Positions 4,658 to 52,024 of a stretch of DNA of 64,000 bases are shown in pieces. Position 1 is the first letter of the stretch, and each line of letters opens with the position of its first letter. The DNA is from Bacillota bacterium. GTDB lineage: Bacteria > Bacillota > GCA-003054495 > Carboxydocellales > JAJZSN01. The notes below the pieces were generated by a model. It did no database searches. It saw only the letters and a list, made by a program, of their open reading frames with translations, and was not told where the DNA came from. A program made the translations under genes and the position numbers. The DNA is taken from NCBI GenBank assembly GCA_021849745.1, contig JAJZSN010000003.1, positions 891 through 64,890 of the forward strand, read 5' to 3'.

Positions 4658-5209
4658 ATGCATCCTGATGGCGAACGGATTCTTTTGTCTGAGGCGGATA
4701 TTAGCGCTAAGGTTAAAGAGATAGGTGAACAAATTTCAAGGGATTATGAAGGTAAAGAGTTATTGGTTATTGGCATTCTCAAGGGAGCCCTGATTTTTAT
4801 GGGTGACCTAGTGCGGCAGATAAACGTACCGGTGAGCCTGGATTTCATGGCTGTGTCCAGTTATGGGACTTCCACCGAATCTTCCGGTGCAGTACGGATT
4901 TTAAAAGATCTGGAGAAGAGCATTGAAGGGCAGCATGTTTTGATTGTGGAGGATATCATTGATACCGGGCTTACTCTGAAATACCTCTTGGAAAACCTCC
5001 AGGCCCGCAAGCCGGCCAGTGTCAAGGTCTGTACTTTGCTGGACAAGCCGGAAAGGCGCAAAACCCAGGTGGTGGCTGATTATAACGGTTTCAGCATTCC
5101 TGATGAGTTCGTAGTGGGTTACGGCCTGGACTACGCCGAGCGGTATCGGAATATTCCCTATATAATGGTGCTTAGGAGAGAAGTGTATGAGGTCAGGGGT
5201 GGCTTATAA
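4658..5209 (+). CDS. hpt: Hypoxanthine(-guanine) phosphoribosyltransferase
   Basis: PRPP loop LIVEDIIDTGLT and DFMAVSSYG. GGGGAGGA lies upstream of ATG 4658. The 45 extra N-terminal aa in the ORF track are not Hpt-like. Confidence 0.9.
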   Translation: MHPDGERILLSEADISAKVKEIGEQISRDYEGKELLVIGILKGALIFMGDLVRQINVPVSLDFMAVSSYGTSTESSGAVRILKDLEKSIEGQHVLIVEDIIDTGLTLKYLLENLQARKPASVKVCTLLDKPERRKTQVVADYNGFSIPDEFVVGYGLDYAERYRNIPYIMVLRREVYEVRGGL

Positions 5210-5254
5210 GCTTTACTATACCATCAGGGGTGGCTTAGAAGTCTTACTATACGG
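5193..5254. repeat. 31-bp tandem direct repeat, 2 copies, overlapping the hpt stop
   Basis: Copy 1 is TCAGGGGTGGCTTATAAGCTTTACTATACCA (5193-5223). Copy 2 is TCAGGGGTGGCTTAGAAGTCTTACTATACGG (5224-5254). A third start, TCAGGTG, follows at 5255. Confidence 0.85.
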
Positions 5255-5394
5255 TCAGGTGTTAGGGGTTAGGTTTTAGGGGTGAGGGTTGGGATTGTCT
5301 TGTATGTTGGGTTCGTAGTTCGTAGTTGTTAGTTGGTGATTCATAGTTTGTAGAATAAGCTGATAGCTGACAGCTGATAGCTGATAGCTGGCAA
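5255..5394. repeat. 140-nt tract of 20 heptamers in a single phase
   Basis: TTAGGGG-type units occupy 5255-5296 and GTTCGTA-type units 5311-5352. CTGATAG/CTGACAG units occupy 5360-5394. The distance 5255 to 5311 is exactly 8x7 nt. The tract runs into the guaA SD (GGGAGG). Confidence 0.9.
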
Positions 5395-5407
5395 GGGAGG
5401 AAGCAAT

Positions 5408-6952
5408 ATGGATTTAGCAAGAGAAAGAGAACTGTTGCTGGTGCTGGATTTTGGTGGCCAGTATAGTCAGTTGATTGCGCGGAGGATTAGGGAGTGTAAG
5501 GTGTATTGTGAGATGCTGCCTTTTTCTACTTCCTTGACCAAGATTAAGGAATTGAATCCTAAGGGGATTGTGTTTTCCGGCGGGCCTTCCAGCGTTTACG
5601 GGGAGAAGGCGCCCAAGGTTGATCCGGGGGTTTTCGAGTTGGGGATTCCCATTCTGGGGATTTGTTATGGGCTGCAGTTGATGGCCCAAAACCTGGGGGG
5701 CACCGTTGAAGGGGCCGTCAACCGGGAGTATGGCAAAACCATGGTTCAGATTATTGAAGAAGATGAGATTCTTACCGGTTTAGGCCCGGAGACCCAGTGC
5801 TGGATGAGTCACGGTGATTTGGTGTCCGCCGTTCCTTCCGGGTTTATGGTAACCGCTAAGACCACCCACACTCCCGTGGCGGCCATGTGCTGCCGGGAGA
5901 AGAAGTTATACGGGGTGCAGTTCCATCCCGAAGTGGTTCACACCCCTAGGGGCAAGGAAGTGCTGGAGAAGTTTCTGTTCCAGGTCTGCGGGTGTTCCGG
6001 GGACTGGAACATGGGGTCTTTCATTGAACAATCCGTCCGGGAAATCCGGGAAAGGGTGGGGGACAAGAAGGTCCTTTGTGCTTTAAGCGGCGGGGTGGAT
6101 AGCTCTGTGGCGGCGGCTTTGGTTCATAAAGCCATCGGCGACCAGCTTACTTGTGTCTATGTTAACCATGGTTTTATGAGGAAGAATGAATCCCAGCAGG
6201 TTAGGGAAACCTTCGAGGGTAAGTTCCATATGAATCTGGATTTTGTGGATGCTGAAGAAAGGTTCCTGGGCAAGATTGCCGGGGTAACCGATCCGGAAAC
6301 TAAGCGGAAGATTATCGGTGAAGAGTTCATTCGTTTGTTCGAGGATGAGGCGGCTAAGCTTGGGCAGATTGATTACTTGGTGCAGGGAACCTTGTATCCC
6401 GATGTGGTTGAGAGCGGTACTGAGACTGCGGCGGTGATTAAGTCCCACCATAATGTGGGCGGACTGCCTGAGGATATGCAATTTGAGTTGATTGAGCCTT
6501 TGCGTTGGCTCTTTAAGGATGAGGTTCGTCTATTGGGCGAGGAACTGGGATTGCCGGAAGAGATCGTGTGGCGTCATCCCTTCCCTGGCCCTGGCTTGGC
6601 CATTCGGATCTTAGGGGAAATCACCAGAGAGAAGCTGGACACCCTGCGGGATGCAGATGCCATCATGGTGGAGGAGATTAAGAAGGCCGGGGAATACCGC
6701 AATATTTGGCAGGCTTTCGTGGTGCTGCCTTCCATGAAGAGCGTCGGGGTTATGGGTGATGAGCGGACTTATGCTTATACTGCAGTGGTACGGGCCGTCA
6801 CCAGCGATGACGGCATGACCGCCGACTGGGCCAGAATGCCTTATGATCTGATGGAGAGTATTTCTTCCAGGATTGTTAATGAGGTTAAGGGCATTAATCG
6901 GGTGGTCTATGATATCACCAGCAAGCCCCCTGGTACTATTGAGTGGGAATAA
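5408..6952 (+). CDS. guaA: GMP synthase (glutamine-hydrolysing)
   Basis: GATase1 motif GICYGLQ, ATP-pyrophosphatase motif SGGVDSS, and the C-terminal end ...PPGTIEWE. Confidence 0.97.
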
Positions 6953-7017
6953 GGCAAGAGGTGAATTTGGGTACTATTGAGCAGCGAAGGATGGCTTTGG
7001 GGGATCTTCAATTTAAA

Positions 7018-7056
7018 AGACCACTCTCCATATTAAAGGAGAATGGTCTTTTTTTT
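7018..7056. terminator. Bidirectional terminator between convergent guaA and the MACPF gene
   Basis: AGACCACTCTCC (7018-7029) pairs with GGAGAATGGTCT (7038-7049) with one mismatch. A T7 run follows on the plus strand and an A-run precedes the stem. Confidence 0.7.
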
Positions 7057-7116
7057 GAGAAACATCAGCCACCAGTTGATGAGCTTGAATGAACTAAATT
7101 ATTTGGTTTACACTAT

Positions 7117-22955: not shown

Positions 22956-22975
22956 TTAAGTGAGGACAAGTAAAT

Positions 22976-23046
22976 ATCTCGTATAAGTTTGAGAATATGG
23001 CTCTTACGTTTCTACCGGGCAACCGTAAATTGCTCGACTACGGGGG
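22976..23046 (+). promoter_or_regulatory. Purine riboswitch aptamer, guanine/hypoxanthine class
   Basis: TATAA...AATATGG...GTTTCTACCGGGCAACCGTAAATTGCTCGACTACG matches the G-box core (L2 ATATGG, J2/3 GTTTCTACC, L3 CCGTAAAT). The specificity position in GACTAC is C. P1 pairs CTCGTA with TACGGG. Confidence 0.85.
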
Positions 23047-23218
23047 AAAACTGCTACGCCAAAGGAGAAAAACCCGGACGGATAGGATTCACTCGATTCT
23101 AAGGAGAGAAAAACCATCAGTTCGGGTATACTTTTTAGGAGGTGGTACATGGCTGGTCATTAGCCAGGTTAATTTTCCCTGTGGTTTTAAAAGACAGAAA
23201 GTGAGGAGGCTGAATTAC

Positions 23219-24587: not shown

Positions 24588-24763
24588 AGCTGTCAGCTGT
24601 CAGCTATCAGCTGTCAGCGGCGGGCTTGCATTTTGGGATTTTTCGGACTAGGGGCCGTTGGCCCCTGTCCAGTCTTATTATAACGTTGATAATTACCGCT
24701 TATAGCGGATTATATAGTTAATTTTTTAAGCTGACGGCTGACAGCTGATAGCTGACAGCTGAC
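24588..24763. repeat. Inverted heptamer-arm element: 27-bp perfect arms around a 118-nt loop
   Basis: The left arm (AGCTGTC)2-AGCTATC-AGCTGTC-AGC spans 24588-24618. The right arm AGCTGAC-GGCTGAC-AGCTGAT-(AGCTGAC)2 spans 24729-24763. Positions 24592-24618 are the exact reverse complement of 24737-24763. Confidence 0.95.
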
Positions 24764-26076: not shown

Positions 26077-26108
26077 AGCTGTCAGCTGTCAGCTATCAGC
26101 TGTCAGCT
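26077..26108. repeat. AGCTGTC/AGCTATC heptamer array directly after the purB stop
   Basis: AGCTGTC AGCTGTC AGCTATC AGCTGTC AGCT. The first 31 nt are identical to 24588-24618. Confidence 0.9.
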
Positions 26109-26136: not shown

Positions 26137-26164
26137 GTTGTTACTCCTTAGTTGTTAGTTTTGT
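26137..26164. repeat. GTTGTTA-type heptamers upstream of purC
   Basis: GTTGTTA CTCCTTA GTTGTTA GTTTTGT. Confidence 0.6.
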
Positions 26165-29508: not shown

Positions 29509-29526
29509 AGCTGTCAGCTGACAGCT
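29509..29526. repeat. Perfect 18-bp palindrome made of one AGCTGTC/GCTGACA pair
   Basis: AGCTGTCAGCTGACAGCT lies 5 nt after the purM stop and 8 nt before the purN SD. Confidence 0.9.
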
Positions 29527-29545: not shown

Positions 29546-30157
29546 ATGAGCCTAAATCTCGGTATTCTGGCTTCGGGCAGCGGGTCTAACTTGCAGGCTA
29601 TTGTAGATGCTTGCGAGAGGGGGGACGTGGTGGCCCGGGTTAAGGTGGTCATCAGTGACAAGGCCGGGGCCTATGCTCTGGAAAGGGCTAGGGCCAAGGG
29701 CATTGCGGCTGTACATATCAATCCCAAAGAGTTTAGCGGGAAAGAGTTCTTTGAAGCGGAGATTGTCAGGGTTTTACAGCTGCATGAGGTTGAACTGGTT
29801 TGTTTGGCGGGATATATGCGTTTGGTTGGGGACAAGTTATTGGGGGCCTTCCCACAGCGGGTGATGAATATTCACCCGGCTCTTTTGCCGGCTTTTCCGG
29901 GCCTACATGGACAGCAGCAGGCCTTTGATTACGGGGTTAGGTTTTCAGGTTGCACTGTTCATTTTGTTGACCATGGCATGGATACCGGACCTATAATTCT
30001 CCAGGCGGTGGTTCCTGTGCTGACCGATGATACGGCTGAGTCCCTGGCGGCCAGGATTTTGGAACAGGAGCATAAGATTTACCCCCAGGCCATACAGCTT
30101 TATGCTGAGGGCAGGCTGAGGGTTGTGGGGCGGAAAGTTATTGTAGCTGGTAGCTGA
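29546..30157 (+). CDS. purN: GAR formyltransferase
   Basis: NIHPALLPAFPG and the VHFVDHGMDTGPII motif. Confidence 0.95.
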   Translation: MSLNLGILASGSGSNLQAIVDACERGDVVARVKVVISDKAGAYALERARAKGIAAVHINPKEFSGKEFFEAEIVRVLQLHEVELVCLAGYMRLVGDKLLGAFPQRVMNIHPALLPAFPGLHGQQQAFDYGVRFSGCTVHFVDHGMDTGPIILQAVVPVLTDDTAESLAARILEQEHKIYPQAIQLYAEGRLRVVGRKVIVAGS

Positions 30158-30212
30158 TAGTTTGTAGCTTTTAGCTGGTTCATAGTTCGTAGTTTGTAGT
30201 TCTTAGTTGGAG
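30143..30212. repeat. Ten in-phase heptamers, from the GTAGCTG type to the GTTCGTA type, spanning the purN stop to the purH SD
   Basis: GTAGCTG GTAGCTG ATAGTTT GTAGCTT TTAGCTG GTTCATA GTTCGTA GTTTGTA GTTCTTA GTTGGAG. The last 5 purN codons and TGA (30155-30157) lie inside the array. Confidence 0.9.
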
Positions 30213-31773: not shown

Positions 31774-31891
31774 TTAGCTGGTAGTTGGTAGCTGATAGCT
31801 GGTAGCCTTGAAAGACAACTTAAGGGTTCGGATAATGACCAAAGAGTTATCATTCAGGCTACAAGCTACAAGCTACCAGCTACAAGCTCCA
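31774..31891. repeat. Imperfect inverted heptamer arms (AGCTGGT type versus AGCTACA type) around a 48-nt loop
   Basis: The left arm spans 31774-31808 and the right arm 31857-31891. My hand alignment gives about 28 of 33 positions pairable, including one G-U. Confidence 0.85.
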
Positions 31892-31906
31892 ACAGGAGGG
31901 AAATAC

Positions 31907-39184: not shown

Positions 39185-39221
39185 ATAAAATTGGTACTGG
39201 AATGAAAACTTTGGATTACTT

Positions 39222-39250
39222 GGAGGAGTTTGTCGTTGAATGTCGAATTA
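39222..39250 (+). promoter_or_regulatory. Candidate sigma-H-type promoter upstream of agrB
   Basis: GGAGGAGTT, an 11-nt spacer, then GTCGAATTA. The -10 nonamer is almost identical to the one at 4563-4571. Confidence 0.25.
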
Positions 39251-39291
39251 TAATGTAATCTAGTAAAATAATTCCAATGGGGGCGGTTGGG

Positions 39292-39918
39292 ATGCTGGAA
39301 CGCTGGATAGCTAATAAAGCCACGGTTATGGCTCAAGAATTGGGCTATGATGATGATAAGCGGGAAGTGTTGCAGTACTCCATGACTATTCTGTCCACAA
39401 CCATTCTGGGTTTCCTGGCAATAGGTCTTGTGGGAGCTTTGGTTGGTGTGGCTGGACTGGCTTTAACTGCCGGACTCTCGGCTGGGATTCTTCGAGCCTA
39501 TTCTGGTGGCGCCCATGCCACTTCACCGATACGATGTAATGTGGTTGGAGTAATTATTTTTATCGGCATTGGTTTGGTAGCCAAGTATCTAAATGGGTGG
39601 GTAGAACCACTATGGTTGGTTATTCCTATTGCCTTATTAGGTTTTGGTTCGATTTATCTTTATGCTCCGGCTGAGGCTCCGGGTAAACCCATTCAGTCCA
39701 TGCTTAAAAGGGCTACTTTTCGTAGGATTTCTTTTAGCTTAATGGGGTTTTGGACCGGTATAGCCGGTTTTTTGGCGGTGAATTCCATGGCCCTGGATGG
39801 CTTTCTTGTGGCTAGCGCACTGGGGATTTGTTGGCAGAGTATATCTTTAACTCCTGCGGGTCATGGTTTGATAGGATTCCTGGATAAAGGTTTACAGTTT
39901 GGTAATAAAATATCATAA
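39292..39918 (+). CDS. agrB: AgrB-family autoinducer-prepeptide processing membrane protease
   Basis: AYSGGAHATSPIRC has His and Cys 7 residues apart, as in S. aureus AgrB H77/C84. There are multiple TM helices. Confidence 0.85.
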   Translation: MLERWIANKATVMAQELGYDDDKREVLQYSMTILSTTILGFLAIGLVGALVGVAGLALTAGLSAGILRAYSGGAHATSPIRCNVVGVIIFIGIGLVAKYLNGWVEPLWLVIPIALLGFGSIYLYAPAEAPGKPIQSMLKRATFRRISFSLMGFWTGIAGFLAVNSMALDGFLVASALGICWQSISLTPAGHGLIGFLDKGLQFGNKIS

Positions 39919-39988
39919 CCCCGTCACCCACGGTTTACATACTATCCTTGTTTCTATTGCTAAGCGAGTATTAAAAGGGGGAATTCTT

Positions 39989-40111
39989 GTGTTAACAAAA
40001 ATTGCTAATCGTTTGATGGCCTCAGCCCTGTTCGCTTTTGCTTTGTTTGATATCGGTATTGCCAGCGGTGTTATAACCTACCAACCGGAGGTGCCCAAAA
40101 GTCTAAGATAG
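39989..40111 (+). CDS. agrD: AgrD-type autoinducing-peptide precursor (40 aa)
   Basis: Amphipathic leader, then ...IGIASGVITYQPEVPKSLR. This aligns with C. perfringens AgrD ...TSACLWFTHQPEEPKSLRDE. AAAGGGGG lies 7 nt before GTG 39989. The ORF-track version begins too early. Confidence 0.75.
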   Translation: MLTKIANRLMASALFAFALFDIGIASGVITYQPEVPKSLR

Positions 40112-40147
40112 TATATTAAATTGAAATGGTGACGGGGTTAATAAAAT

Positions 40148-40639
40148 TTGGAGGTTTTAGTGTTGGATTTTCGCACAATTTTATTAATTTATTTTCCGGT
40201 AATGAGTTTAGCTGCTTATTCAGGTTTAGCCCTTCTAGGCATAAGAATAAAACTTGTCCCTGCTGTTTTGGCGGGCATAACTGCAGGAACCATGGACTAT
40301 TTCGTTAGGATGACCTACGTACCTTTAGGAATTCCTCCTCTTTTGGATTTGCCACTTATGGTACTAATTTTAGCAATAGTTTTAAAGTTTTTTACTAAAG
40401 AAAGTTGGATGGCAGTAACAGGAGGTAGTATTTTAAGCTACATTCTTATTTCTGTCGGTGATTTAGTTATTTTCCCAATGACATTAAGCATTTTAGGTAT
40501 TACAATAGAACAACTGGTTAAAGATATTTGGCTTGCCCTGATGGCGGGTTACGCAAATTCTTTATTGCTTATTATATCTAGTTTATTATCATTTTTTTAC
40601 AAGTTCAAAATAATAGATTTATCTAGTATGAGAAAGTAA
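40148..40639 (+). CDS. Polytopic membrane protein (about 5 TM), candidate detached AgrC sensor module
   Basis: Entirely hydrophobic helices with no soluble domain. It lies between agrD and the AgrC-like kinase. GTG 40160 (GGAGG 5 nt upstream) is an alternative start. Confidence 0.7.
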   Translation: MEVLVLDFRTILLIYFPVMSLAAYSGLALLGIRIKLVPAVLAGITAGTMDYFVRMTYVPLGIPPLLDLPLMVLILAIVLKFFTKESWMAVTGGSILSYILISVGDLVIFPMTLSILGITIEQLVKDIWLALMAGYANSLLLIISSLLSFFYKFKIIDLSSMRK

Positions 40640-40665
40640 ACGTTTGTAAAATTAGGTGGTGGCTC

Positions 40666-41541
40666 ATGGGAAATATTGATAAGATAAATAAAAAAGCATT
40701 AATCCTGGTTAATGTTATATTAGGCCAGACTTTATTGGTGGTATTTATTGTTACTTATAATAGGTTATGGATTGCCGATGAAATGATGAGAAGGGCGCCG
40801 GATGTCCTTATTACCGCAGTGTTTACTGTTGCAACCGTTATTCTAACGGCATTAGGGGTCTGGTTAATAAGGACTATTATGGAGATGGCTGCTAAAGAAG
40901 TTCAGGCTGAAGCCAACGAAGCCCGGTTAGAAGAAAGCTTGGAATTCATCGAAGTCCTGCGTTCGCACCGTCATGACTACCTTAACCATCTGCAGGTTAT
41001 ATCGGGATTACTGGATTTAGGGATGAATGACAGAGCCAAACAATATATCTGGGAATTGGCTAAAGATATTAAAGAAGAAAAAGGACTCCAATTGGCTGAC
41101 CATGCGGAAATCAATGCCCTCTTGGTCAAAAAATGGGCTCTTGCCGAGGTTAATAAGGTGGCTGTGTCTTTGGAAGTCACTGCAGATTTAAGAAGTATGA
41201 CCATACCTTCCTATGATTTAACCAGAATTCTTGGCAACCTTATTGAAAACGCCATTCAGGCTACCACTCAAGTGGATGAAAGCCAGAGAAAAGTTGAAGT
41301 TGGAATCCATGAGGATCCTACAAAATGGATATTTATTGTATTTAATCAGTTACCCATTATTCCCCTTGAAATGCAACAGAGGGTTTTTGAGAGGGGTTTT
41401 TCCACTAAAGGAACTGAGGGTAGGGGTCTAGGTTTGGATATAGTTTGCAATTTGTTGGAGAAATATAATGGAACCATTGATTTGGTGAGTAAGGACGGTC
41501 TTGGCACCGTTTTCACGGCGAAAATACCTAAGAAGCAATGA
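40666..41541 (+). CDS. AgrC-like (HPK10) histidine kinase with only 2 TM helices
   Basis: H-box LRSHRHDYLNHLQ (compare AgrC FRHDYVN). N-box ILGNLIENAIQA. G-box FSTKGTEGRGLGLDIV. Confidence 0.85.
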   Translation: MGNIDKINKKALILVNVILGQTLLVVFIVTYNRLWIADEMMRRAPDVLITAVFTVATVILTALGVWLIRTIMEMAAKEVQAEANEARLEESLEFIEVLRSHRHDYLNHLQVISGLLDLGMNDRAKQYIWELAKDIKEEKGLQLADHAEINALLVKKWALAEVNKVAVSLEVTADLRSMTIPSYDLTRILGNLIENAIQATTQVDESQRKVEVGIHEDPTKWIFIVFNQLPIIPLEMQQRVFERGFSTKGTEGRGLGLDIVCNLLEKYNGTIDLVSKDGLGTVFTAKIPKKQ

Positions 41542-41546
41542 TGCTT

Positions 41547-41575
41547 AAAAAGCCCTTCTAAGGGCTTTTTGTTTT
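41547..41575 (+). terminator. Rho-independent terminator closing the agr cassette
   Basis: AAAGCCCT pairs with AGGGCTTT around a 4-nt loop, followed by TTGTTTT. Confidence 0.8.
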
Positions 41576-41620: not shown

Positions 41621-41667
41621 TTTATCATGCTAATGCTTTAACGAATTAAAGTGATGGAGGATTGTTT

Positions 41668-43616: not shown

Positions 43617-43617
43617 C

Positions 43618-44156
43618 ATGGCCGGCGGGGCGGTCCGGGAGTTGACCAGGTGCCCATGAAAGCCGATTTTGCCTGGGATGTGGAGGGTTTGCAGGCCGCT
43701 GCGGGGCGGGATGTGACCCGGGTGGTATTTCTCTGTTCCCCCAATAACCCCACAGGCGGGTGCCTTGACCGGGCTGCGTTGGAAGGGATTTTGGCGGCTG
43801 TGGCGGCCCTGGAAAACCGGGAGTATTTCAGGCCTCAGCTAGAGGCAATTATAGCGGGGCGTCAATGGTTGAGCGAAGAGTTAATCGGGATTGAGAGTGT
43901 GGAGGTTTTTCCTTCTAAAGCGAATTTCATTCTCTTCCGGGTGCCGGGCTGTGCCGGAGAAGTTTTCCGTAGGCTGGCAGAGGAGGGTGTTTTTATAAGG
44001 TATTTTAATGAGGCGCCGGGTTTGGAAAAATGTTTGCGAATTAGTGTCGGAAAAAAAGAGGATAATTCAGCTTTTGTAGAGAAAATTAGAAATATCTTAG
44101 GGCAGCTATCAGCTGTCAGCTATCAGCTAAAAAATAGGCGGGAAAGAAAGCGGTGA
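43618..44156 (+). pseudogene. hisC: Histidinol-phosphate aminotransferase remnant
   Basis: A 13-codon N-terminal stub (43618-43659) is in a different frame from the 168-aa ORF. That ORF joins ...VVFLCSPNNPTGG...LAAV directly to ...AALENREYF...PSKANFILFRV.... The DEAY and SK(PLP-Lys) segments are absent, as are about 140 N-terminal aa. Confidence 0.8.
44104..44128. repeat. AGCTATC/AGCTGTC heptamer array translated as the tail of the hisC remnant
   Basis: AGCTATC AGCTGTC AGCTATC AGCT encodes ...QLSAVSYQL.... Confidence 0.85.
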
Positions 44157-44163
44157 GAGCGAA

Positions 44164-44751
44164 GTGCGGATTAGTAAGGTGGAAAGAAAGACAACTGAGA
44201 CGGAGATTAGTCTGAGTTTGAACCTGGATGGTAATAAAGGTGGGAAAATCGTCACTGGGGTTGGGTTTCTTGATCATATGCTGAATTTGTGGGCCAGGCA
44301 CGGGGATTTTGATTTGGAAGTTGCTGCCAAGGGGGATGTGGGGGTTGATGATCACCACACCACTGAGGATGTGGGGATTTGTTTAGGTCTGGCCTTCCGG
44401 GAAGCTCTGGGTACCAAAGAGGGGATTCAGCGGTATGGCAATAGTTTTGTACCGATGGATGAGGCTTTGGTTCAGGCGGTGGTGGATATCAGCGGGCGGG
44501 CGTATCTGGCTTTGGACGGGGAGATTCCCCGGAGCAAGGTGGGAACCTTTGATACCGAGCTGGTTGAAGAATTCTTACGAGCTTTTGCTCATAATGCCGG
44601 TGTTAACCTGCATATTAGAATATTGGCAGGCCGAAACACCCACCATATCATTGAGGCGGTATTTAAAGCTCTGGGCAGGGCTTTGAGGGAAGCTGCCGCA
44701 CTGGATCCAAGGGTTAAGGGCGTACCTTCTACCAAGGGTCTCTTGCAATAG
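44164..44751 (+). CDS. hisB: Imidazoleglycerol-phosphate dehydratase
   Basis: [16 protein letters not shown] start. DDHHTTED and HHIIEA metal motifs. Confidence 0.95.
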
Positions 44752-44763
44752 GGGGGTTAGAGA

Positions 44764-45378
44764 TTGATTGCCATAATTGATTATGGGATGGGTAACCTGC
44801 GCAGTGTGCAAAAAGGTTTTGAGAAGGTGGGTTATGAGGCTAAAATCGTCCAGGATCGCGGTGAGGTGCTGGCGGCCCGGGGTGTAATTTTACCGGGGGT
44901 AGGGGCTTTTAAGGATGCTATGGATAACCTGCGGGATGCTGATCTTATTGATCCTATCCAACAGGTGGTGGCCAAGGGGACACCTTTTCTGGGTATTTGC
45001 CTGGGGATGCATTTACTTTTTGAAACCGGTGAGGAATGGGGAATTCATGAGGGTTTAGGTCTTCTGAAGGGTACGGTGCGTAAACTGCCTGGCGGGGTCA
45101 AAGTGCCTCATATGGGTTGGAATCAGATTGAAGTGGTTCATGAAAGCCCCATTATTCAGGGGATACCCCACGGAGCGGATTTTTATTTTGTCCATTCCTA
45201 TTACGTTGATCCCGCAGATGAAAAAGTAATCACTACCCAGACTGATTATGGGATTAAGTTTACTTCCATTGTATCCCAGGGCAATGTTTTTGGTATCCAG
45301 TTTCATCCTGAGAAAAGCAGCGCCTTAGGGCTGCAGATATTAAAGAATTTTGGGGAGTTGATTGAGAAATGTTGTTGA
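44764..45378 (+). CDS. hisH: Imidazole glycerol phosphate synthase, glutaminase subunit
   Basis: IAIIDYGMGNLRSV start, the GICLGMH nucleophile, and FHPEKS. Confidence 0.95.
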   Translation: MIAIIDYGMGNLRSVQKGFEKVGYEAKIVQDRGEVLAARGVILPGVGAFKDAMDNLRDADLIDPIQQVVAKGTPFLGICLGMHLLFETGEEWGIHEGLGLLKGTVRKLPGGVKVPHMGWNQIEVVHESPIIQGIPHGADFYFVHSYYVDPADEKVITTQTDYGIKFTSIVSQGNVFGIQFHPEKSSALGLQILKNFGELIEKCC

Positions 45379-46085
45379 TTCCGGCCATCGATTTACGGGG
45401 TGGGAAATGTGTGCGGTTGGTTGAAGGCAAGGTTGAGAATGAAACCATTTATTCCCATGAACCCGTGGAACAGGCTCTCAAATGGCAGGACAAGGGGGCC
45501 CGGATGCTGCACCTGGTGGATTTGGACGGGGCATTTGCCGGTCGGCCCAAGAACCTGGATGTAATTAAGGAGATTGTTCGGGCAGTGGATATCCCGGTTC
45601 AACTAGGCGGCGGAATACGAACCCTTGAGACTATCGAAATGCTCCTGGAGATGGGGATAAACCGGGTTATCCTGGGCAGTATCGCCATCTATAAGCCGGA
45701 TTTGGTAAAAGAGGCCTGCAGCCGGTATGCTGACCGGGTAGTGGTAGGCATTGACGCCAAGGACGGCCTGGTGGCCATCGAGGGTTGGGAATCAACTGTT
45801 GATAAAACTACTGTGGATCTGGCTCTAGAGATGAAAGAAGCCGGCGTTAAACGGATTATTTTTACCGACACCAGGCGGGACGGCACTTTAAAGGGTCCCA
45901 ACGTGGAGTCAACCAAAGAACTGGCCGAGAAAACCGGCCTTAAAGTAGTGGCCTCCGGCGGGGTATCCTCTCTGGACGACATCAAGGCTCTCAAGGAAAT
46001 CGAACCCCTAGGCGTAGACAGCGTCATCCTGGGCAAAGCCCTCTACACCGGAGCAGTGGATCTGGAGGAGGCGCTTAGGATTTAG
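45369..46085 (+). CDS. hisA: ProFAR isomerase
   Basis: LIPAIDLRGGKCVRL start and the later (beta/alpha)8 motif ...IASGGVSSLDDI.... There is a 10-nt overlap with hisH. Confidence 0.95.
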   Translation: MLLIPAIDLRGGKCVRLVEGKVENETIYSHEPVEQALKWQDKGARMLHLVDLDGAFAGRPKNLDVIKEIVRAVDIPVQLGGGIRTLETIEMLLEMGINRVILGSIAIYKPDLVKEACSRYADRVVVGIDAKDGLVAIEGWESTVDKTTVDLALEMKEAGVKRIIFTDTRRDGTLKGPNVESTKELAEKTGLKVVASGGVSSLDDIKALKEIEPLGVDSVILGKALYTGAVDLEEALRI

Positions 46086-46204
46086 CTGTCAGCTATCAGC
46101 TATCAGCTGTCAGCCGATGGGGTATGCTTATCCCGTCAAATAAACTCCAGACATGTATTATAGCTATAAGCTACTGGCTATTAGCTAGAAAGCCAGCTAT
46201 AAGG
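46084..46204. repeat. Two heptamer arrays after hisA: AGCTGTC type (46084-46114) and AGCTATA/AGCTACT type (46161-46204)
   Basis: The first array begins inside the hisA TAG stop codon. The second contains the hairpin CTGGCT...AGCCAG. Confidence 0.85.
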
Positions 46205-46515
46205 TTTTCTCTTGCATGCATAGGTTGGGGTGTTTTGTGGAGCAACTTTTCATAAACGTGCGAGAGACAGCCCGTCGGATGCCGAGACATTACCCTAAAA
46301 GGGCGTATAGGTGCAGTCACCTCTCATTGAAGACGGCGGGGAACAAACCGGGTAGCTCTCGTGAAGCCTGAAAAGTTGAGCTAGTGAGGCTTCGAAGAAC
46401 AAAGTGATGAGGTAGCCTCACTTGTGCCGCGATACTTAAGGTGCATACTTGTAGGCGAACAAAATACCCCAACCGCCCGTACCAAAACCCCAAAGTAAAC
46501 AAGGAGCGAAAGCTT

Positions 46516-47277
46516 ATGCTAACCAAACGCATTATCCCCTGCCTGGACGTCACCGGCGGCCGGGTGGTTAAAGGGACTAATTTTGTTAATTTAAGAGATG
46601 CCGGGGATCCGGTGGAACTGGCGGCGGTTTATGATGCCGCCGGGGCCGACGAACTGGTTTTTCTGGACATTACCGCTTCTTCCGACGGGCGGGCCACCAT
46701 GTTAGATGTGGTCCGACGTACTGCCGAGGAAGTGTTTATCCCCTTTACCGTGGGCGGGGGTATCCGGACCATTGAGGATATCCGCCAGATGCTGAAGGCG
46801 GGGGCGGATAAGGTTTCCCTTAATACTTCGGCTGTACAGAACCCGGAGGTAATCGGTCAAGGGGCGTCCAAGTTCGGTTCCCAGTGTATTGTGGTGGCCA
46901 TTGATGCCCGGTCAACCGGAACGCCCGGCAAGTGGGAGGTCTATATCCACGGAGGGCGGACTCCTACCGGTATAGACGTTCTGGAGTGGGCCAGGAAGGT
47001 AGAGGAACTGGGAGCAGGGGAAATCCTGCTGACCAGCATGGACAGGGACGGCACCAAGGACGGCTACGACCTACCCTTAACCAAAGCGGTAGCGGAAGCG
47101 GTGAACATCCCGGTTATTGCCTCCGGGGGTGTGGGCAACTTAGAGCATATTGCCCAGGGATTAACCGAAGGTAAGGCCGATGCTGCTTTGGCCGCTTCGA
47201 TTTTCCATTTTGGCGAATACACCATCCGGGAGACTAAGGATTACCTGGCATCCCGGAATGTGAAGGTCAGGATGTAA
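46516..47277 (+). CDS. hisF: Imidazole glycerol phosphate synthase, cyclase subunit
   Basis: [12 protein letters not shown] start. AAGGAG lies 9 nt before ATG 46516. The 25 upstream ORF-track codons are not HisF-like. Confidence 0.97.
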
Positions 47278-47296
47278 GGTTGGGTAATATTTGCGG

Positions 47297-47379
47297 TCAG
47301 GGGTTAGGTTTTAGGGGTAAGGGTGGGGTATTCTTGGATGAAGGGTTCATAGTTCGTAGTTTATAGTTCGTAGATTAGG
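47297..47379. repeat. TTAGGGG-type then GTTCGTA-type heptamer tract; paralogue of 5255-5352
   Basis: CGGTCAGGGGTTAGGTTTTAGGGGTAAGGGTGGGGTATTCTTGGATGAAGGGTTCATAGTTCGTAGTTTATAGTTCGTAG aligns with 5252-5345 apart from one heptamer indel and scattered substitutions. Confidence 0.85.
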
Positions 47380-47584
47380 GAATTCACGAAAGACTTACCC
47401 GACTAATGGTTGGCATGCATAGCAGAACCGACCTTTTTGCACTGCACACCAGCACAAGGAAGGCTAAGGCTTGCTATCACCAGCCTAAGCCTTCCTAGCC
47501 CGAAGTGAGCTTAGTAGCACTGTGCCCGGAGCATGGGAGTGCGTTCAATTATCAACACCCCGCCCCAGTCAAAGATTCGTACAA

Positions 47585-47619
47585 AGCTAACGACTGACGA
47601 CTAACAGAATAAGAATACG
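47585..47619. repeat. AGCTAAC/GACTGAC heptamers running into the hisI SD
   Basis: AGCTAAC GACTGAC GACTAAC AGAATAA GAATACG, followed by AGGGAGA and ATG 47631. Confidence 0.7.
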
Positions 47620-47630
47620 AGGGAGACAAG

Positions 47631-48257
47631 ATGGAATTTCTAAATACCTTAAAATTTAACGCCCATGGGCTGATTCCGGCTATCGTTCAGGATTATGCCA
47701 ATAACGAAGTTCTGATGATGGCTTATATGAATCGGGAGGCTGTGGAAAAGACGCTGGAGACGGGGAAAACCTGGTTTTGGAGCCGAAGCAGGCAGAAGTT
47801 GTGGAATAAAGGGGAGACTTCCGGTCATTGGCAATTGGTTAAGTCCATGGCCTATGATTGTGATGCCGATGCACTGCTAATTAAGGTGGAGCAGTTGGGG
47901 GTTGCTTGTCATACCGGCAACCGGACGTGTTTTCACAATCATATTGAAACTGTCCAGGGTGAGAAAACCGTTCCTGTAGACAGCACTATACTTGATACTG
48001 TTTATCAGGTTATTTTAAGCCGGAAAGCAGAACGGCCGGAAGGTAGTTATACCACTTATCTTTTTGATAAGGGCATTGATAAGATTCTTAAAAAAGTAGG
48101 CGAAGAAGCTGCCGAGGTAATTATTGCTTCCAAGGGTGCTAATAGGGATGAGGTTGTTTATGAAGCTGCCGATTTATTTTTCCATACTTTAGTTATGTTG
48201 GGCTTCCACGATATTACCCCGGAGGAAGTATACAGGGAATTGGCTAAACGCAGGTAA
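47631..48257 (+). CDS. hisI: Bifunctional phosphoribosyl-AMP cyclohydrolase / phosphoribosyl-ATP pyrophosphatase
   Basis: The HisI part reads ...[17 protein letters not shown]...CHTG. The HisE part reads ...YTTYLF...[10 protein letters not shown].... Confidence 0.95.
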
Positions 48258-48289
48258 AATAGAGGCAATACTCTAGGAATAATAGAGTG

Positions 48290-48318
48290 TTGACACTTAT
48301 GGGGGCCTAAGGTAAAAT
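48290..48318 (+). promoter_or_regulatory. Sigma-A-type promoter for the HD-GYP gene
   Basis: TTGACA (48290-48295), a 17-nt spacer, then TAAAAT (48313-48318). Confidence 0.5.
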
Positions 48319-48378
48319 TTAATTAGTATAATCGAAAGTAATAATGTTCCCGAACTATATTACATAATGGAGGTACTC

Positions 48379-49476
48379 ATGGATTTCTTTGGATCCGGTA
48401 AAGAGTTAATCTTTCTTAACGAGGTCATACGGGAACTAAGCTCAAGCTATCATTTTGATGATAATATTAATGCTCTTTTAATTAATGCGGCTACGGCTAC
48501 CATCAGTGAAGCCGGTTGTCTACTTACTGTAAATAATAACTATAAAAAGGGACGAATCACCGTTTTTGAAGTCTCGGCAACTTATGGAGGGATTAATCAT
48601 CGATGTCTGGACTTCTTAGCAAAAGAGAGTTTCTTTATTCAAAGTTTTCTTGAGAATCCTGTGAGTAGAATAGTGGACGGTGTTGAAAAACACTTTCTGC
48701 CTCTTAAATTAATGGATCCCTTATTACGTTCTATGTTAGTTGTTCCTATTGTTTTGGACAAGCGAGTTTTGGGCCTATTGATTTTGCTTCACCGACATCA
48801 AGGAAGGGAAGAACATTTACCCCAGTTTACGGAAAGGGATAGCCAATTGATGGGTATTTTGGCCCATCAGGCAGCCCTAATGATAGAGAACAACTATTTG
48901 AAGATGGAAAACCAGCGCCGCAGTTTATATCTCAAAACCATCACTGCTTTAAGTCAAGCTATAGAAGCCAAGGACATTTACACCAGAGGTCATTCGGAGC
49001 GAGTAGCAGCCCTGGCCACAGGGTTGGGTGCAGAGTTAAAATTATCTCCGGACGAAATAGCCAACATAAATTATGGGGCTTTGCTCCATGATGTAGGTAA
49101 AATTGGTATCAGTGAAGCTATTCTTAATAAAGAGGGTCGTTTGGATCCGGAAGAATACGAAATTATGAAAAAGCACCCTGAAATTGGCGCCAATATTTTG
49201 AGTGAAGTGGATTTTCTTGAGGATGCCCTGGATGTGGTGACACACCATCATGAGCGTATTGACGGGTCAGGCTACCCAAAGGCTCTGGTTCAAAAGGAGA
49301 TTCCCTTGGCGGCCAGGATTGTGGGGATTGCCGATGCTTGGGATGCTATGACTTCAGACCGGGCTTACCGGCAGGCTATGCCGGAAAATATGGCAGTAAA
49401 TCAGCTGCGCAGAGGGGCGGGTACTCAGTTTGATGCCTACCTTGTGGAAAGATTTCTTTGGATGGTACTTAGCTAG
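48379..49476 (+). CDS. GAF-domain / HD-GYP-domain protein (c-di-GMP phosphodiesterase type)
   Basis: HSERVA...LHDVGK...HHERIDGSGYP. GGAGG lies 7 nt before ATG 48379. Confidence 0.9.
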   Translation: MDFFGSGKELIFLNEVIRELSSSYHFDDNINALLINAATATISEAGCLLTVNNNYKKGRITVFEVSATYGGINHRCLDFLAKESFFIQSFLENPVSRIVDGVEKHFLPLKLMDPLLRSMLVVPIVLDKRVLGLLILLHRHQGREEHLPQFTERDSQLMGILAHQAALMIENNYLKMENQRRSLYLKTITALSQAIEAKDIYTRGHSERVAALATGLGAELKLSPDEIANINYGALLHDVGKIGISEAILNKEGRLDPEEYEIMKKHPEIGANILSEVDFLEDALDVVTHHHERIDGSGYPKALVQKEIPLAARIVGIADAWDAMTSDRAYRQAMPENMAVNQLRRGAGTQFDAYLVERFLWMVLS

Positions 49477-49478
49477 AA

Positions 49479-49630
49479 GTTAGAGGTTGGAGGTTCGAGG
49501 TTAGAAGGGTTTGGCTGGCAATGATTATTCTTTGAGATAGAATATATATAACTACGATATGCAATTCAGATGTACCCCTTGGGGGTTTTTTTATTAATCT
49601 AACCCCAAACTTCCAACCTCTAACCTCTAA
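49479..49630. repeat. Inverted heptamer arms of GTTNGAG type around a loop that contains a terminator-like hairpin
   Basis: The left arm GTTAGAG GTTGGAG GTTCGAG GTTAGAA GGGTTTG spans 49479-49513. The right arm CTAACCC CAAACTT CCAACCT CTAACCT CTAA spans 49599-49630. Positions 49479-49495 pair with 49608-49624 (17 bp, one G-U). Confidence 0.9.
49574..49592 (+). terminator. Short GC hairpin plus T7 inside the loop of the 49479-49630 element
   Basis: ACCCC-TTG-GGGGT followed by TTTTTTT. The stem is only 5 bp. Confidence 0.4.
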
Positions 49631-49647
49631 AAGGGAGGATTTTTTTA

Positions 49648-51831
49648 ATGTTAGGATTAGACAAGCTTAATTCGGCCCAGCAAGAGGCGGTTAGATGTAT
49701 AGACGGACCCCTTTTGGTTCTGGCTGGGGCGGGTAGTGGTAAGACCAGGGTATTGACCCATAGAATTGCTTATCTCTTGCACCAGGGGGTAGATCCCAGG
49801 AACATTATGGCCATTACCTTTACCAATAAGGCTGCCGGGGAGATGAAGGAGCGGGTGGAAAACCTCCTGGGTAGGGACAGCCGGGATATCTGGGTAATGA
49901 CTTTCCATTCAGCGTGTGTGCGAATTTTGCGTCAGGATATCGGTCATCTTGGTTATGACCGGAATTTTGTGATTTATGATAGCAGTGATGCCCAGACGGT
50001 GGTTAAAGAGTGTTTGAAGCAGTTAAATATGGATGATAAGCAGTACCCGCCACGGGCGGTGGCTGCCGCCATCAGTGATGCCAAGAACAAGCTGTTGAAT
50101 CCCGGGCAATACCGGAAGCAGGCTTATGATTTTTATACTCAGCGGGCTGCCGAAGTTTATCAACTTTACCAGAGTAAGCTGAAGCAGAATAACGCCTTGG
50201 ATTTTGATGATTTGATTATGTTGACGGTGCGGTTATTTAAAGAGCAGCCGCAGACTTTAGGCTACTACCAGCAGCGGTTTAAATATATTCTGGTGGACGA
50301 GTACCAGGATACCAATCATGCCCAGTATACCCTGGTCAATTTGTTGGCGGGCCGTCACCGCAATCTTTGTGTGGTGGGGGATGCCGACCAGAGTATCTAT
50401 AAGTTCCGGGGGGCGGATATTCAGAATATCCTGGATTTTGAAAAGGACTACCCCGAGGCCAGGGTTATCATGCTGGAGCAGAATTACCGTTCTACCCAGC
50501 GGATTCTGGATGCAGCCAATAGTGTTATCAAGCTTAATATGGGCCGCAAGGATAAAAAATTATGGACTGAAAACGGAGAGGGTATTCCCGTGGTGCGGTT
50601 CAGGGCCAATGACCAGCGGGAAGAAATAGCTTTTGTCGCCGACCGGATTAAGAAACTGATGGAGCGGGAGAAGAAAGGGTATAAGGATTTTGCGGTGCTT
50701 TACCGGACCAATGCCATGTCCCGGGCGGTTGAGGAAGTCTTCATGATGGCCCGGATTCCTTACACCATAGTCGGGGGCCTGAAGTTCTATGAGCGTAAGG
50801 AAATTAAAGATATTCTTGCTTACCTGCGGTTTATCCTTAATCCTGCCGACAGTGTTTCTTTACGGAGGATTATTAATGTCCCCAAGCGGGGTATCGGGGA
50901 TACTTCCTTTGGTAAAATTGTTGACTTTGCCATAGATAAAGGGATTACCGTCTATGAGGCTATGGGGCAGGTGGAGACCATTCCCGGTCTGACGGCCAGA
51001 ACCACCAAGCCGGTGAAAGAGTTTACGGCCTTGGCGGAAAAGCTGCAGGAGGCCAGGGAACAGTTGATTGTTACCCAACTTATTGACATGGTGCTAAGGC
51101 AGTCGGGTTATCAAGCTGAATTGGAGCAGGAAAAAACGGTGGAAGCTCAGACCCGGCTGGAGAACTTAAAGGAATTCCGTACCGTAACCAAGGAATTTGA
51201 TGAGACCGCCGAGGAGAAGACCCTTGAGGAGTTTCTGGCGGGGATTTCCCTTAAATCGGACTTAGATAACCTGGAGGAAGGGGATGATGCAGTGGTCCTC
51301 ATGACCCTGCACAGCGCCAAGGGGTTGGAGTTTCCGGTGGTGTTCATGGTGGGCATGGAGGAGATGATTTTCCCCCATTCCAGGTCTATGATGGACGAGG
51401 CTGAATTGGAGGAGGAGCGGCGTCTGTGCTATGTGGGCATTACCCGGGCCAGGGAGCGGTTGTACATGACCCACGCCTGGCAGCGGACCCTTTACGGTAA
51501 TGCCCAATATAACCCGGCTTCCCGGTTCCTGGAGGAGATTCCGGAGGATTTGATAACTACCCATGACCCCTTGGACGGGGCGGCTGAGCCGGCGGTTAAA
51601 AAGGGTGTATTTCCTGCCGGAGGTTCTGTCCAACCGAAGGCGGCCGGGGTTAAAGAGCCTGCTGCAACGGGGCAATATGCCTTGGGGGACAAGGTGGAGC
51701 ACGCTAAGTTCGGTCAGGGGGTAATTGTCAGTGTGAAGGGTTCGGGCGATGATGCCGAACTTAGTATAGCTTTCCCCGGCGCCGGGGTGAAGATGTTTAT
51801 TGCTAAGTATGCACCGCTGAGGAAGGCATAG
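49648..51831 (+). CDS. pcrA: ATP-dependent DNA helicase PcrA (UvrD/Rep family)
   Basis: GAGSGKT, DEYQDTN, VGDADQSIY and TLHSAKGLEF motifs. 727 aa. Confidence 0.97.
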   Translation: MLGLDKLNSAQQEAVRCIDGPLLVLAGAGSGKTRVLTHRIAYLLHQGVDPRNIMAITFTNKAAGEMKERVENLLGRDSRDIWVMTFHSACVRILRQDIGHLGYDRNFVIYDSSDAQTVVKECLKQLNMDDKQYPPRAVAAAISDAKNKLLNPGQYRKQAYDFYTQRAAEVYQLYQSKLKQNNALDFDDLIMLTVRLFKEQPQTLGYYQQRFKYILVDEYQDTNHAQYTLVNLLAGRHRNLCVVGDADQSIYKFRGADIQNILDFEKDYPEARVIMLEQNYRSTQRILDAANSVIKLNMGRKDKKLWTENGEGIPVVRFRANDQREEIAFVADRIKKLMEREKKGYKDFAVLYRTNAMSRAVEEVFMMARIPYTIVGGLKFYERKEIKDILAYLRFILNPADSVSLRRIINVPKRGIGDTSFGKIVDFAIDKGITVYEAMGQVETIPGLTARTTKPVKEFTALAEKLQEAREQLIVTQLIDMVLRQSGYQAELEQEKTVEAQTRLENLKEFRTVTKEFDETAEEKTLEEFLAGISLKSDLDNLEEGDDAVVLMTLHSAKGLEFPVVFMVGMEEMIFPHSRSMMDEAELEEERRLCYVGITRARERLYMTHAWQRTLYGNAQYNPASRFLEEIPEDLITTHDPLDGAAEPAVKKGVFPAGGSVQPKAAGVKEPAATGQYALGDKVEHAKFGQGVIVSVKGSGDDAELSIAFPGAGVKMFIAKYAPLRKA

Positions 51832-51832
51832 C

Positions 51833-52024
51833 AGCTGTCAGCTATCAGCTATCAGCTGTCAGCAGGCGGGCTGAACTTTTTGGTCGTTTTGCGGAGGGAT
51901 TATTTCTGGAACTACAAAGTGAGTATACGGAATTTTATTCTAAATTTAACGTAATCTTTTAAAATTTTTAAGCTAACAGCTGACAGCTGACAGCTGATAG
52001 CTAAAAAAACAGCTGATAGCTACT
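51833..52024. repeat. Inverted heptamer-arm element, sibling of 24588-24763
   Basis: The left arm AGCTGTC AGCTATC AGCTATC AGCTGTC AGC spans 51833-51863. The right arm AGCTAAC (AGCTGAC)2 AGCTGAT AGCT...AGCTGAT AGCTACT spans 51971-52024. Positions 51847-51863 are the exact complement of 51986-52002 (17 bp). Confidence 0.9.

Follow-up and report, generated by a model that had tools for sequence, protein, structure and literature searches.

Tandem arrays of seven-nucleotide units occupy gaps between genes in a 64,000-nucleotide stretch of DNA from a Bacillota bacterium (contig JAJZSN010000003.1 of assembly GCA_021849745.1; hereafter, the window), mostly in its purine (pur) and histidine (his) operons and on both sides of pcrA. 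Here, we lean towards reading these arrays as the arms of hairpin elements of the intervening sequence (IVS) type that have lost or lack an open reading frame (ORF), are co-transcribed with the host genes, are probably processed by RNase III, and would travel as selfish or neutral passengers. In other genomes, the gene that lies between similar arms encodes a 23S-rRNA-intervening-sequence protein (IVP; PF05635/TIGR02436), an Avd-like four-helix bundle. The window arrays are built like the arms that surround IVP genes, and two of their unit families share the sequence of such arms.

The arrays were found by three methods. A relaxed caller detected 16 period-7 arrays in the window; other periods gave 0-4, and 20 windows with locally shuffled sequence averaged ~0.4. 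In a scan for self-matches at fixed lags, period 7 gave 13 runs, and periods 4-6 and 8-12 gave none. Tandem Repeats Finder (TRF) returned ~19 period-7 rows at the coordinates of an earlier model-made reading of this DNA (the original prediction), so that the arrays listed there are real and non-random. They fill 10 gaps firmly and two marginally (10594-10607, two units; 29509-29526, a palindrome of 1+1 unit), fewer than the 13 or more first counted, and the homogeneous ones have ~4-6 units each rather than 2-12. By pattern search, six of the eight AGCT-type arrays are exactly 31 nt long, i.e., four units plus AGC, and the 31-mers at 24588 and 26077 are identical, as are those at 46084 and 51833. 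The AT-rich patches of the window hold no family member, as had been predicted. Two weak calls do not belong to the family: a TRF row at 59281-59310 is coding sequence for a lipoprotein signal peptide, and a match of the relaxed caller at 3586-3607 is an A-rich repeat outside the AT-rich patches.

The placement of the arrays is far from random. All but one of the 16 lie within the non-coding 13% of the window or the terminal 15 nt or less of an ORF, the sole exception being the array at 44103-44129, which falls within the tail of the truncated hisC ORF. As in the short tandemly repeated repetitive (STRR) and long simple sequence repeat (LSSR) classes, 7-nt units stand head to tail above chance and mainly between genes, and the proposal of an STRR-like, strongly intergenic heptanucleotide family is borne out. 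The stricter claim that no array enters an intact coding sequence holds for most of them, but three reach into the 3' end of an ORF, namely that of purN, of the response-regulator gene, or of the hisC fragment (its tail). The 5' arms start -15 to +4 nt relative to the preceding stop codon, and the 3' arms end 8-41 nt ahead of the following start codon. Apart from the one in the hisC-fragment tail, AGCTRTC arrays start within -2 to +4 nt of a stop codon, and arrays of the reverse complement, AGCTGAY, end 13-41 nt before the next start, directly 5' of the Shine-Dalgarno site. The predicted anchoring to stop codons and Shine-Dalgarno sites thus describes the arms well, except for the array in the hisC-fragment tail. 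STRRs have been known since about 1990.

Four gaps hold pairs of reverse-complementary arrays that can form duplexes of 29-36 bp, almost wholly Watson-Crick, with z-scores of -4.1 to -10.3. The minimum free energies are -97.4 kcal/mol for the whole gap between the xanthine/uracil permease gene (xan) and purB (z -10.3), -59.7 kcal/mol for the purH-purD pair (z -9.4), -70.2 kcal/mol for pcrA-ppaC (z -6.5), and -55.0 kcal/mol for the gap between the response-regulator gene and pcrA (z -4.1). The A/G variants of one arm are matched in its partner, e.g., ATC with GAT in the xan-purB pair. The original prediction had noticed the complementary units; it missed that they are arms of long hairpins and that they lead to IVP cassettes. 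The loops of the paired elements (45-111 nt) are mutually unrelated; promoter- or terminator-like consensus matches occur in them (24686-24713, 31808-31836, and 49574-49586), at overall counts equal to those expected from shuffles. Solo arrays occur in the purB-purC, hisC-hisB, and hpt-guaA gaps, and further arrays are G/T-rich composites. One composite of TTAGGGG and GTTCGTA units is present twice (5246-5356 and 47288-47384; ~95 nt, 83% identity), and the identity extends through the non-repeat linker, which indicates that it was copied as a module.

No array matched Rfam at the gathering score, where the only hit in the window is a purine riboswitch (22959-23060), and a catalogued RNA family is thereby ruled out. 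Permissive Rfam scans of the hairpins gave only sub-threshold hits to miRNA-precursor models; those at 31777-31887 and 49471-49632 (eukaryotic models; 27 and 23 bits, far below threshold) are a chance effect of the long-hairpin shape. A CRISPR array was also ruled out because the units are 7 nt long and contiguous, whereas CRISPR repeats measure 24-47 nt and alternate with unique spacers of similar length.

Comparison of the orthologous spacers in relatives, which had been suggested as a check, indicates how the arrays arose. The closest purB relatives are Thermincola metagenome-assembled genomes (MAGs; 83% amino-acid identity), and Thermincola-like relatives have kept the gene order of the pur operon. 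Those without arrays have 14-60 nt between cistrons at the same junctions, and in loci L118-L120 the gaps between high-scoring segment pairs are 16-64 nt at nearly all the same pur junctions. The purE-purB junction of L120 reads TAAGGAGGATTCAAAATG, and the purB-purC junction reads TAAAGGAGGAAAAGTGATG. Because the array-free gaps at these junctions are short, the window arrays are insertions into formerly short gaps. Loci L120, L123, L124, and L126 carry period-7 arrays of quite different units, such as AGAGTGG/ACTCTCC and AGTTGCT/AACTAGC; some of those in L123 and L124 occupy the same gaps as in the window, and the one array of L120 lies in the purN-purH gap. The 66 more distant purB loci (mostly Bacillaceae, ~1 Mb) contain no period-7 arrays. 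In the purB-purC gap of L123 (9300-9550), a different inverted repeat has CGCGGAT-containing units at a period of ~10-11 nt and is followed by AACTAGG heptamers before the Shine-Dalgarno site. In five loci of this set, including L123, purH aligns with no more of the window protein (518 aa) than residues 6 to ~200, purD comes directly next, and purH appears to be shortened or split there.

The family is confined neither to Firmicutes nor to the window; the statement in the original prediction that the repeats were unrecognised holds insofar as Rfam has no match. More than 117 contigs contain the exact AGCTGTC/AGCTATC 24-mer AGCTGTCAGCTATCAGCTGTCAGC, among them contigs of Acidobacteriota, Planctomycetota, Chloroflexota, Bacteroidota, Nitrospirota, Bacillota, and other phyla, and a TTAGGGG/TTAGGTT 19-mer was detected in at least 120 contigs from metagenomes. 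Loci with the 24-mer carry ~36 period-7 arrays per 100 kb, mostly of AGCTNTC units and frequently in complementary pairs with loops of 25-150 nt. In two Acidobacteriota MAGs, complementary arrays in successive gaps flank S4-like and L6-like ribosomal protein genes, and the elements thus colonise highly expressed operons there too. Cargo genes other than the IVP gene were rejected because the large "loops" are host genes (rpsD, rplF) lying between arrays of neighbouring gaps.

The link to IVP genes was seen first in the relatives with unrelated units. Just 5' of purB in L123, an AGAGTGG/ACTCTCC pair encloses a 125-aa ORF that matches PF05635 (2.5e-41) and TIGR02436 ("four helix bundle protein", 9e-40); its match to Avd, the protein of diversity-generating retroelements, is below threshold. 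The ORF is homologous to PDB entries 2GSC and 2RLD, both of which contain five chains as deposited, and a Xanthomonas protein of the IVP family has been described as a homopentamer (PMC4990558). When the loci with the AGCT 24-mer were searched with the L123 protein, IVP ORFs were found between AGCTNTC arms in three and directly abutting a detected AGCTNTC-type array in two more. TTAGGGG/TTAGGTT arms enclose an IVP ORF at another locus, and complementary CCCCTAA-type repeats directly follow one at yet another. Two unit families of the window are therefore documented beside IVP genes elsewhere, and IVP ORFs lie in the loop at two additional loci, among others.

The association was also examined from the protein side, with 80 loci picked by the IVP protein alone as the best matches, among at least 589, to an Acidobacteria-type query. 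A period-7 array lies within 250 nt of the IVP ORF at 63 of the 80, from many phyla, and on both sides at 37. Period 8 was found at seven of the 80 and any other period at one at most, apart from the period-14 harmonic. The flanking arms are usually reverse complements, and their units vary between lineages. A significant inverted repeat brackets 60 of 77 IVP ORFs, with a median stem of 31 bp, and the 5' array starts at a median of -2 nt from the stop codon of the upstream host ORF. The IVP ORF has the same orientation as its upstream neighbour in 64 of 72 cases ('++' versus '--', 47 versus 2). Array copy number peaks sharply at 4.5 units, and AGY is present in 50 of 63 units read in the 5'-arm orientation. 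We speculate that the conserved AGY and the fixed length of ~4.5 units reflect sequence-specific recognition, for which the pentameric IVP is one candidate. Our full-text literature search, which was non-exhaustive, found no paper tying PF05635 genes generally to heptamer arrays, and the general association appears to be undescribed. One paper describes IVP genes lodged among cas genes, and its text on the family mentions no repeats (PMC3936711).

Several further ideas about these elements were rejected. The IVP gave no PADLOC match, which speaks against membership of a defence system. Covariation of IVP sequence with arm type across phyla gave a weak signal (49% versus 44-45% identity) that is confounded by query bias. 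A universal polarity with the G/T-rich arm first, avoiding Rho loading, does not hold across IVP elements (15 versus 17), whereas polarity holds inside families (GGGAATC, 54 of 59; AGCT, 38 of 43). At L074 (5570-5700), one of the three loci with IVP ORFs between AGCTNTC arms, from a Stellaceae MAG, the 5' end of the IVP gene (ATGCAGAACTTTCG...) and its AGCTGTC array are present as two tandem copies, which gives the appearance of an insertion nested in the cassette or of a duplication there mediated by the array.

Among known systems, the elements resemble the IVSs of 23S rRNA in Coxiella burnetii, Leptospira, Haemophilus, and Brucella (PMC4990558). The Coxiella IVS contains an S23p (IVP-family) ORF within a 28-bp stem of terminal inverted repeats and has 3-4 tandem GACAGAT heptamers, varying in number among strains, just 5' of the ORF; RNase III cuts where the first of these repeats begins, as mapped in vitro and by rapid amplification of cDNA ends (PMC4990558). 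The likenesses are terminal inverted repeats that form a stem of ~28-31 bp, heptamers in tandem within the stem region at the 5' end (GACAGAT differs by one base from GACAGCT of the window), sense orientation in the host transcript, and a dispensable, decaying ORF, which is PF05635 in the loop of the full-length relatives (L123 and many phyla). Unlike the rRNA IVSs, which sit in helix 25 or 45 of 23S rRNA, the window elements are inserted between protein-coding cistrons, none of their copies has an ORF, several unit families coexist, and cleavage by RNase III is here an inference.

The elements also resemble other heptamer repeats in part. The GGGAATC units of Xanthomonas and the GGGGA(C/T)T units of Nostoc are 89-93% intergenic, lie near the end of the 5' neighbour ORF and mostly between co-oriented genes, and form at least 70 convergent inverted pairs per genome, with 70-75 for GGGAATC in Xanthomonas (Rehm et al. 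2015, PMC4692102). The window likewise has convergent pairs near upstream ORF ends between co-oriented genes, and its G-rich TTAGGGG subfamily may form G-quadruplexes. The window units differ in sequence from GGGNATC with its G-tracts, and those other than TTAGGGG (AGCTRTC, GTTCGTA, GTTAGAG, and TAGCTGG) lack G-runs; GGGAATC-type arrays reach at least 14 units as opposed to ~4.5 here. The cyanobacterial STRRs of Calothrix and Anabaena, in the account cited in PMC4692102, are also short heptamers of few types between operon genes, but with other units, in another phylum, and described there as direct arrays rather than stop-to-Shine-Dalgarno hairpin arms. TAACTGA repeats of marine Beggiatoaceae, Cyanobacteria, and Bacteroidetes consist of 2-6 heptamers just 5' of start codons (MacGregor 2015, PMC4679880). 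Their cross-phylum distribution similarly suggests horizontal spread, and their CTGA core is present in AGCTGAY; nearly all are direct (one of 170 sets is indirect) and replace the Shine-Dalgarno site, whereas the window arrays are paired and the site is kept. Intergenic heptamer repeats have also been described in Geobacter (PMC2700814).

Based on these comparisons, we propose how the elements may arise and persist. A full cassette consists, after the host stop codon, of ~31 nt of heptamers, the IVP gene, and the reverse-complementary array, followed by the Shine-Dalgarno site of the next gene, and lies co-directionally within the host transcription unit. In the window, such elements would have entered stop-to-Shine-Dalgarno gaps of originally 14-60 nt in the pur and his operons and beside pcrA, with every copy gene-less; these ORF-less copies would be decayed or non-autonomous derivatives, and the solo arrays and G/T-rich composites decayed or rearranged halves. 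In a read-through transcript, the arms would pair into a double-stranded RNA stem of ~30 bp. By analogy with the rRNA IVSs, RNase III would cut this stem, and the insert would be removed or the flanking cistrons uncoupled at little cost to the host, which would allow the insert to be tolerated in essential operons. For the source organism, the stem length and the Coxiella data suggest such cleavage, and we infer that the elements spread. Most probably they are passengers, selfish or neutral, and any use in mRNA stabilisation or processing would be secondary.

Several observations weigh against this reading. In a hidden Markov model search of the six-frame translation of the window, no IVP gene or remnant was found (best E = 8.8), and an IVP pseudogene in the loops was rejected. 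No IVP gene was found at 120 GGGAATC-family loci, where the positive control worked; as a class, therefore, heptamer arrays can occur without IVP genes. Since the 80 protein-first loci are the best matches to an Acidobacteria-type query, the proportion of 79% may fail for distant IVPs. Several window arrays are solo and unstructured (z ~0), and the terminator-like hairpin at 49574-49586 would keep the two arms off one transcript unless it is read through. The stems have no sense-strand excess of G.U pairs or of stability (83 versus 86 G.U pairs; Wilcoxon p = 0.41), sense and antisense folds being equal in stability and G.U counts both in the window and in 37 IVP elements. Strand-specific selection at the RNA level was rejected on these grounds; the stems provide no specific argument for RNA-level selection, and the complementarity may be generated on DNA. 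The loops of five pairs had no significant similarity, no target-site duplication was seen on reading the window flanks, and no conserved boundary motif was present in the flanks or termini of 208 AGCT-type arrays. With these three results, a simple copy-paste element is not demonstrated.

Part of this evidence would suit ordinary long simple sequence repeats grown in place by polymerase slippage, neutral filler of the STRR/LSSR kind in which IVP genes merely land or survive. Heptamers were reported to be the most over-represented long class of such repeats in prokaryotes (Mrazek 2007, as cited in PMC4679880 and PMC4692102), copy number differs among Coxiella strains, and the GGGAATC loci without IVP genes, the unconserved loops, and the lack of visible target-site duplications would follow. 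We consider this unlikely because slippage predicts monotonic lengths and not a sharp peak at 4.5 units with six of eight AGCT arrays at exactly 31 nt, and it fails on matched reverse-complementary arms with compensating A/G variants, identical units across phyla, the duplicated 95-nt composite, and 63 of 80 IVP genes with arrays starting at the host stop codon. Could the arrays instead be cis-regulatory sites, bound by an RNA-binding protein or the ribosome, of a post-transcriptional purine/histidine regulon as proposed for the Beggiatoaceae TAACTGA repeats? The 3'-type arms 8-41 nt before starts, the solo arrays at hpt-guaA and purB-purC, the hexamer conserved across phyla with one free position (AGCTNTC), the AGY in 50 of 63 5'-arm-orientation units, and the CTGA core common to TAACTGA, MTYCTGA, and AGCTGAN would agree with such sites. 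Close relatives, however, run the same operons without arrays, sister lineages have unrelated units (AGAGTGG) at the same gaps, and canonical Shine-Dalgarno sites are kept beside the arrays, which also flank pcrA, the pyrophosphatase gene, and, in other phyla, ribosomal protein genes. The window encodes no protein that is a candidate for such binding, and a regulon of this kind is quite unlikely.

The remaining alternatives place the elements at the DNA level or give the IVP a larger role. Repetitive extragenic palindromic (REP) sequences, bacterial interspersed mosaic elements (BIMEs), hairpin-forming REP doublets (REPINs) with REP-associated tyrosine transposases (RAYTs), and MITEs (miniature inverted-repeat transposable elements) are likewise dispersed intergenic hairpins in operon spacers that can stabilise or process mRNA. 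The window arrays would be comparable single-stranded DNA hairpins or cruciforms copied by an enzyme acting in trans, perhaps dependent on the IVP, with RNA processing incidental. RAYT genes are flanked by REPs, as IVP genes are by heptamer arrays, and the near-complete Watson-Crick stems with equal stability on both strands, the identical 31-mers and duplicated composite within 64 kb, and the nested or duplicated element inside the IVP 5' end at L074 all accord with copying as DNA. We still regard it as quite unlikely. The arms are tandem heptamers rather than the unique palindrome of ~20-40 nt that characterises REP, BIME, and REPIN sequences, the flanked gene encodes a four-helix bundle protein without known catalytic activity or any PADLOC or other functional match rather than an HUH enzyme, and no transposase, RAYT, or reverse-transcriptase gene is present among those window ORFs that were annotated; many ORFs were left unscanned, and no search aimed at such genes was made. 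MITEs with a conserved core were rejected because the loops are dissimilar, termini are not fixed, and no target-site duplication was seen; that IVP genes run so strictly in the direction of host transcription is also easier to explain at the level of RNA or expression. More ambitiously, heptamer hairpins and the Avd-like IVP may form one cross-phylum system, in which the pentamer recognises arrays of 4.5-5 units, perhaps with one AGY-containing unit per subunit, and makes, copies, or maintains them, the ORF-less hairpins being non-autonomous dependants in the manner of REPINs and RAYTs. Spread might proceed via an RNA intermediate, which would explain the strict sense orientation and the kinship with Avd, the partner of a reverse transcriptase. 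We hold this idea to be possible but rather doubtful.

The features of the window are listed in Table 1.

Table 1. Heptamer arrays and associated features of the window, with positions numbered from its first nucleotide.
Feature	Position	Strand	Remarks	Basis
31-nt repeat in 2.2 tandem copies, with one small hairpin per copy	5193-5259	+	Supplies last codons and stop of hpt (5207-5209), then heptamer arrays	TRF, sequence
TTAGGGG/TTAGGTT-type array, linker, and GTTCGTA-type array (composite module)	5253-5353	+	No complementary partner nearby; no stable fold, z +0.3	TRF, fold
Solo AGCTGAY array, 3'-arm type, 4.7 units	5358-5390	+	Ends 17 nt before guaA ATG	
Two units, GTCAGGG GTTAGGG (marginal)	10594-10607	+	Lead-in TATGAGGTCAGGGG in common with 5184-5200	sequence
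5' arm, AGCTRTC x4 + AGC, 31 nt	24588-24618	+	4 nt past stop of xanthine/uracil permease gene; pairs with 24730-24763 (28 Watson-Crick + 2 G.U, -60 kcal/mol)	
111-nt loop with GC-rich hairpin and promoter-like site 24686-24713	24619-24729	+	No similarity to other loops	
3' arm, AGCTGAY	24730-24763	+	Ends 13 nt before purB start, just 5' of its Shine-Dalgarno site	
Solo AGCTRTC array	26077-26108	+	1 nt past purB stop; 31-mer identical to 24588-24618	
Weak GTTGTTA-like run (marginal)	26137-26164		purB-purC gap	
Mini-palindrome AGCTGTCAGCTGACAGCT	29509-29526	+	Between purM stop and purN Shine-Dalgarno site; 7-bp hairpin	
TAGCTGG/TAGCTGA array, then GTTCRTA array	30143-30208	+	Jointly fill purN-purH gap; purN stop inside array	
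5' arm, TAGCTGG type	31775-31806	+	1 nt past purH stop	
3' arm, AGCTACA type	31855-31892	+	Ends 14 nt before likely purD start (~31907); 28 Watson-Crick + 1 G.U pairs	
Solo AGCTRTC array, 3.9 units	44103-44129	+	Directly 3' of end of hisC homology, in truncated hisC ORF tail	
AGCTRTC array, 31 nt	46084-46114	+	Overlaps hisA stop codon	
Degenerate TAGCTAT-type period-7 array	46161-46204	+	Poor complement of 46084-46114	TRF, fold
Second TTAGGGG + GTTCRTA composite	47295-47377	+	Starts 17 nt past hisF stop	
Degenerate ACGACTR run	47585-47619	+	Before hisIE Shine-Dalgarno site; imperfect pairing with 47296-47330, z -2.0	
5' arm, GTTAGAG/GTTGGAG	49471-49505	+	Overlaps stop of GAF/HD-domain gene	
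Canonical terminator-like hairpin with seven-T run	49574-49586		In loop 5' of pcrA	terminator scan
3' arm, CTCTAAC/CTCCAAC	49598-49630	+	Ends 17 nt before pcrA ATG	
5' arm, AGCTRTC	51832-51863	+	Starts immediately past pcrA stop	
3' arm, AGCTGAY, and two further units beyond an A-run	51971-52024	+	Ends 19 nt before ATG of CBS-domain pyrophosphatase gene; 34 Watson-Crick + 2 G.U pairs	

The gene set of the window comprises hpt, guaA, and a single-chain purL; a purine riboswitch with the xanthine/uracil permease gene; purB-C-F-M-N-H-D; hisZ, an AT-rich insert, hisG-D, the hisC fragment, and hisB-H-A-F-IE; and, towards the 3' end, a GAF/HD-domain gene with a weak NCBIfam match to response-regulator c-di-GMP phosphodiesterase, pcrA, and the gene for a CBS-domain Mn-pyrophosphatase. 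No tRNA, tmRNA, or rRNA genes were found in a scan of the window. The riboswitch (RF00167, 79.8 bits) lies 5' of the permease gene, whose listed ORF start at 22997 is inside the aptamer; the true start is thus further downstream. The lead-in TATGAGGTCAGGGG at 5184-5200 recurs at 10585-10600. The AT-rich block at 39185-41575 between hisZ and hisG, with three ORFs and no heptamer arrays, splits the histidine operon. The hisC fragment (43650-44156), located 34 nt after hisD, is a 168-aa ORF that matches only positions 248-349 of the 349-position hisC profile; a full-length hisC must lie elsewhere in the genome, or another aminotransferase does the step. The gaps hisA-hisF (430 nt, 46086-46515) and hisF-hisIE (353 nt, 47278-47630) are unusually long. 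Besides arrays, both contain ~200-300 nt of structured sequence without an Rfam match, including an inverted repeat (46223-46238/46459-46474), a perfect hairpin (47457-47496), and a shared motif, GCATGCATAG.

Taken as a whole, the original interpretation is partly supported. As heptamer repeats, the arrays add a new family to a class that was already known; read as ORF-less IVS-type hairpins, they would be new in colonising the intercistronic gaps of biosynthetic operons in a Firmicute. Heptamer repeats have had no accepted function or origin, and two long-standing orphan features of bacterial genomes may belong together. If heptamer hairpins and IVPs did form one system, then STRRs, rRNA IVSs, and the orphan "S23 ribosomal protein" family would share one explanation. 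If the preferred reading of the arrays as arms of IVS-type elements holds, it would offer a testable mechanism in which RNase III-processed intercistronic hairpins are selfish cassettes on host transcripts, and IVP genes "associated" with cas operons would be reread as insertions. It would also identify a source of mis-annotated gene ends, because arrays supply the stops or C-terminal tails of purN, hisA, and others, and would open a way to study how little-known anaerobes process the mRNA of their operons.

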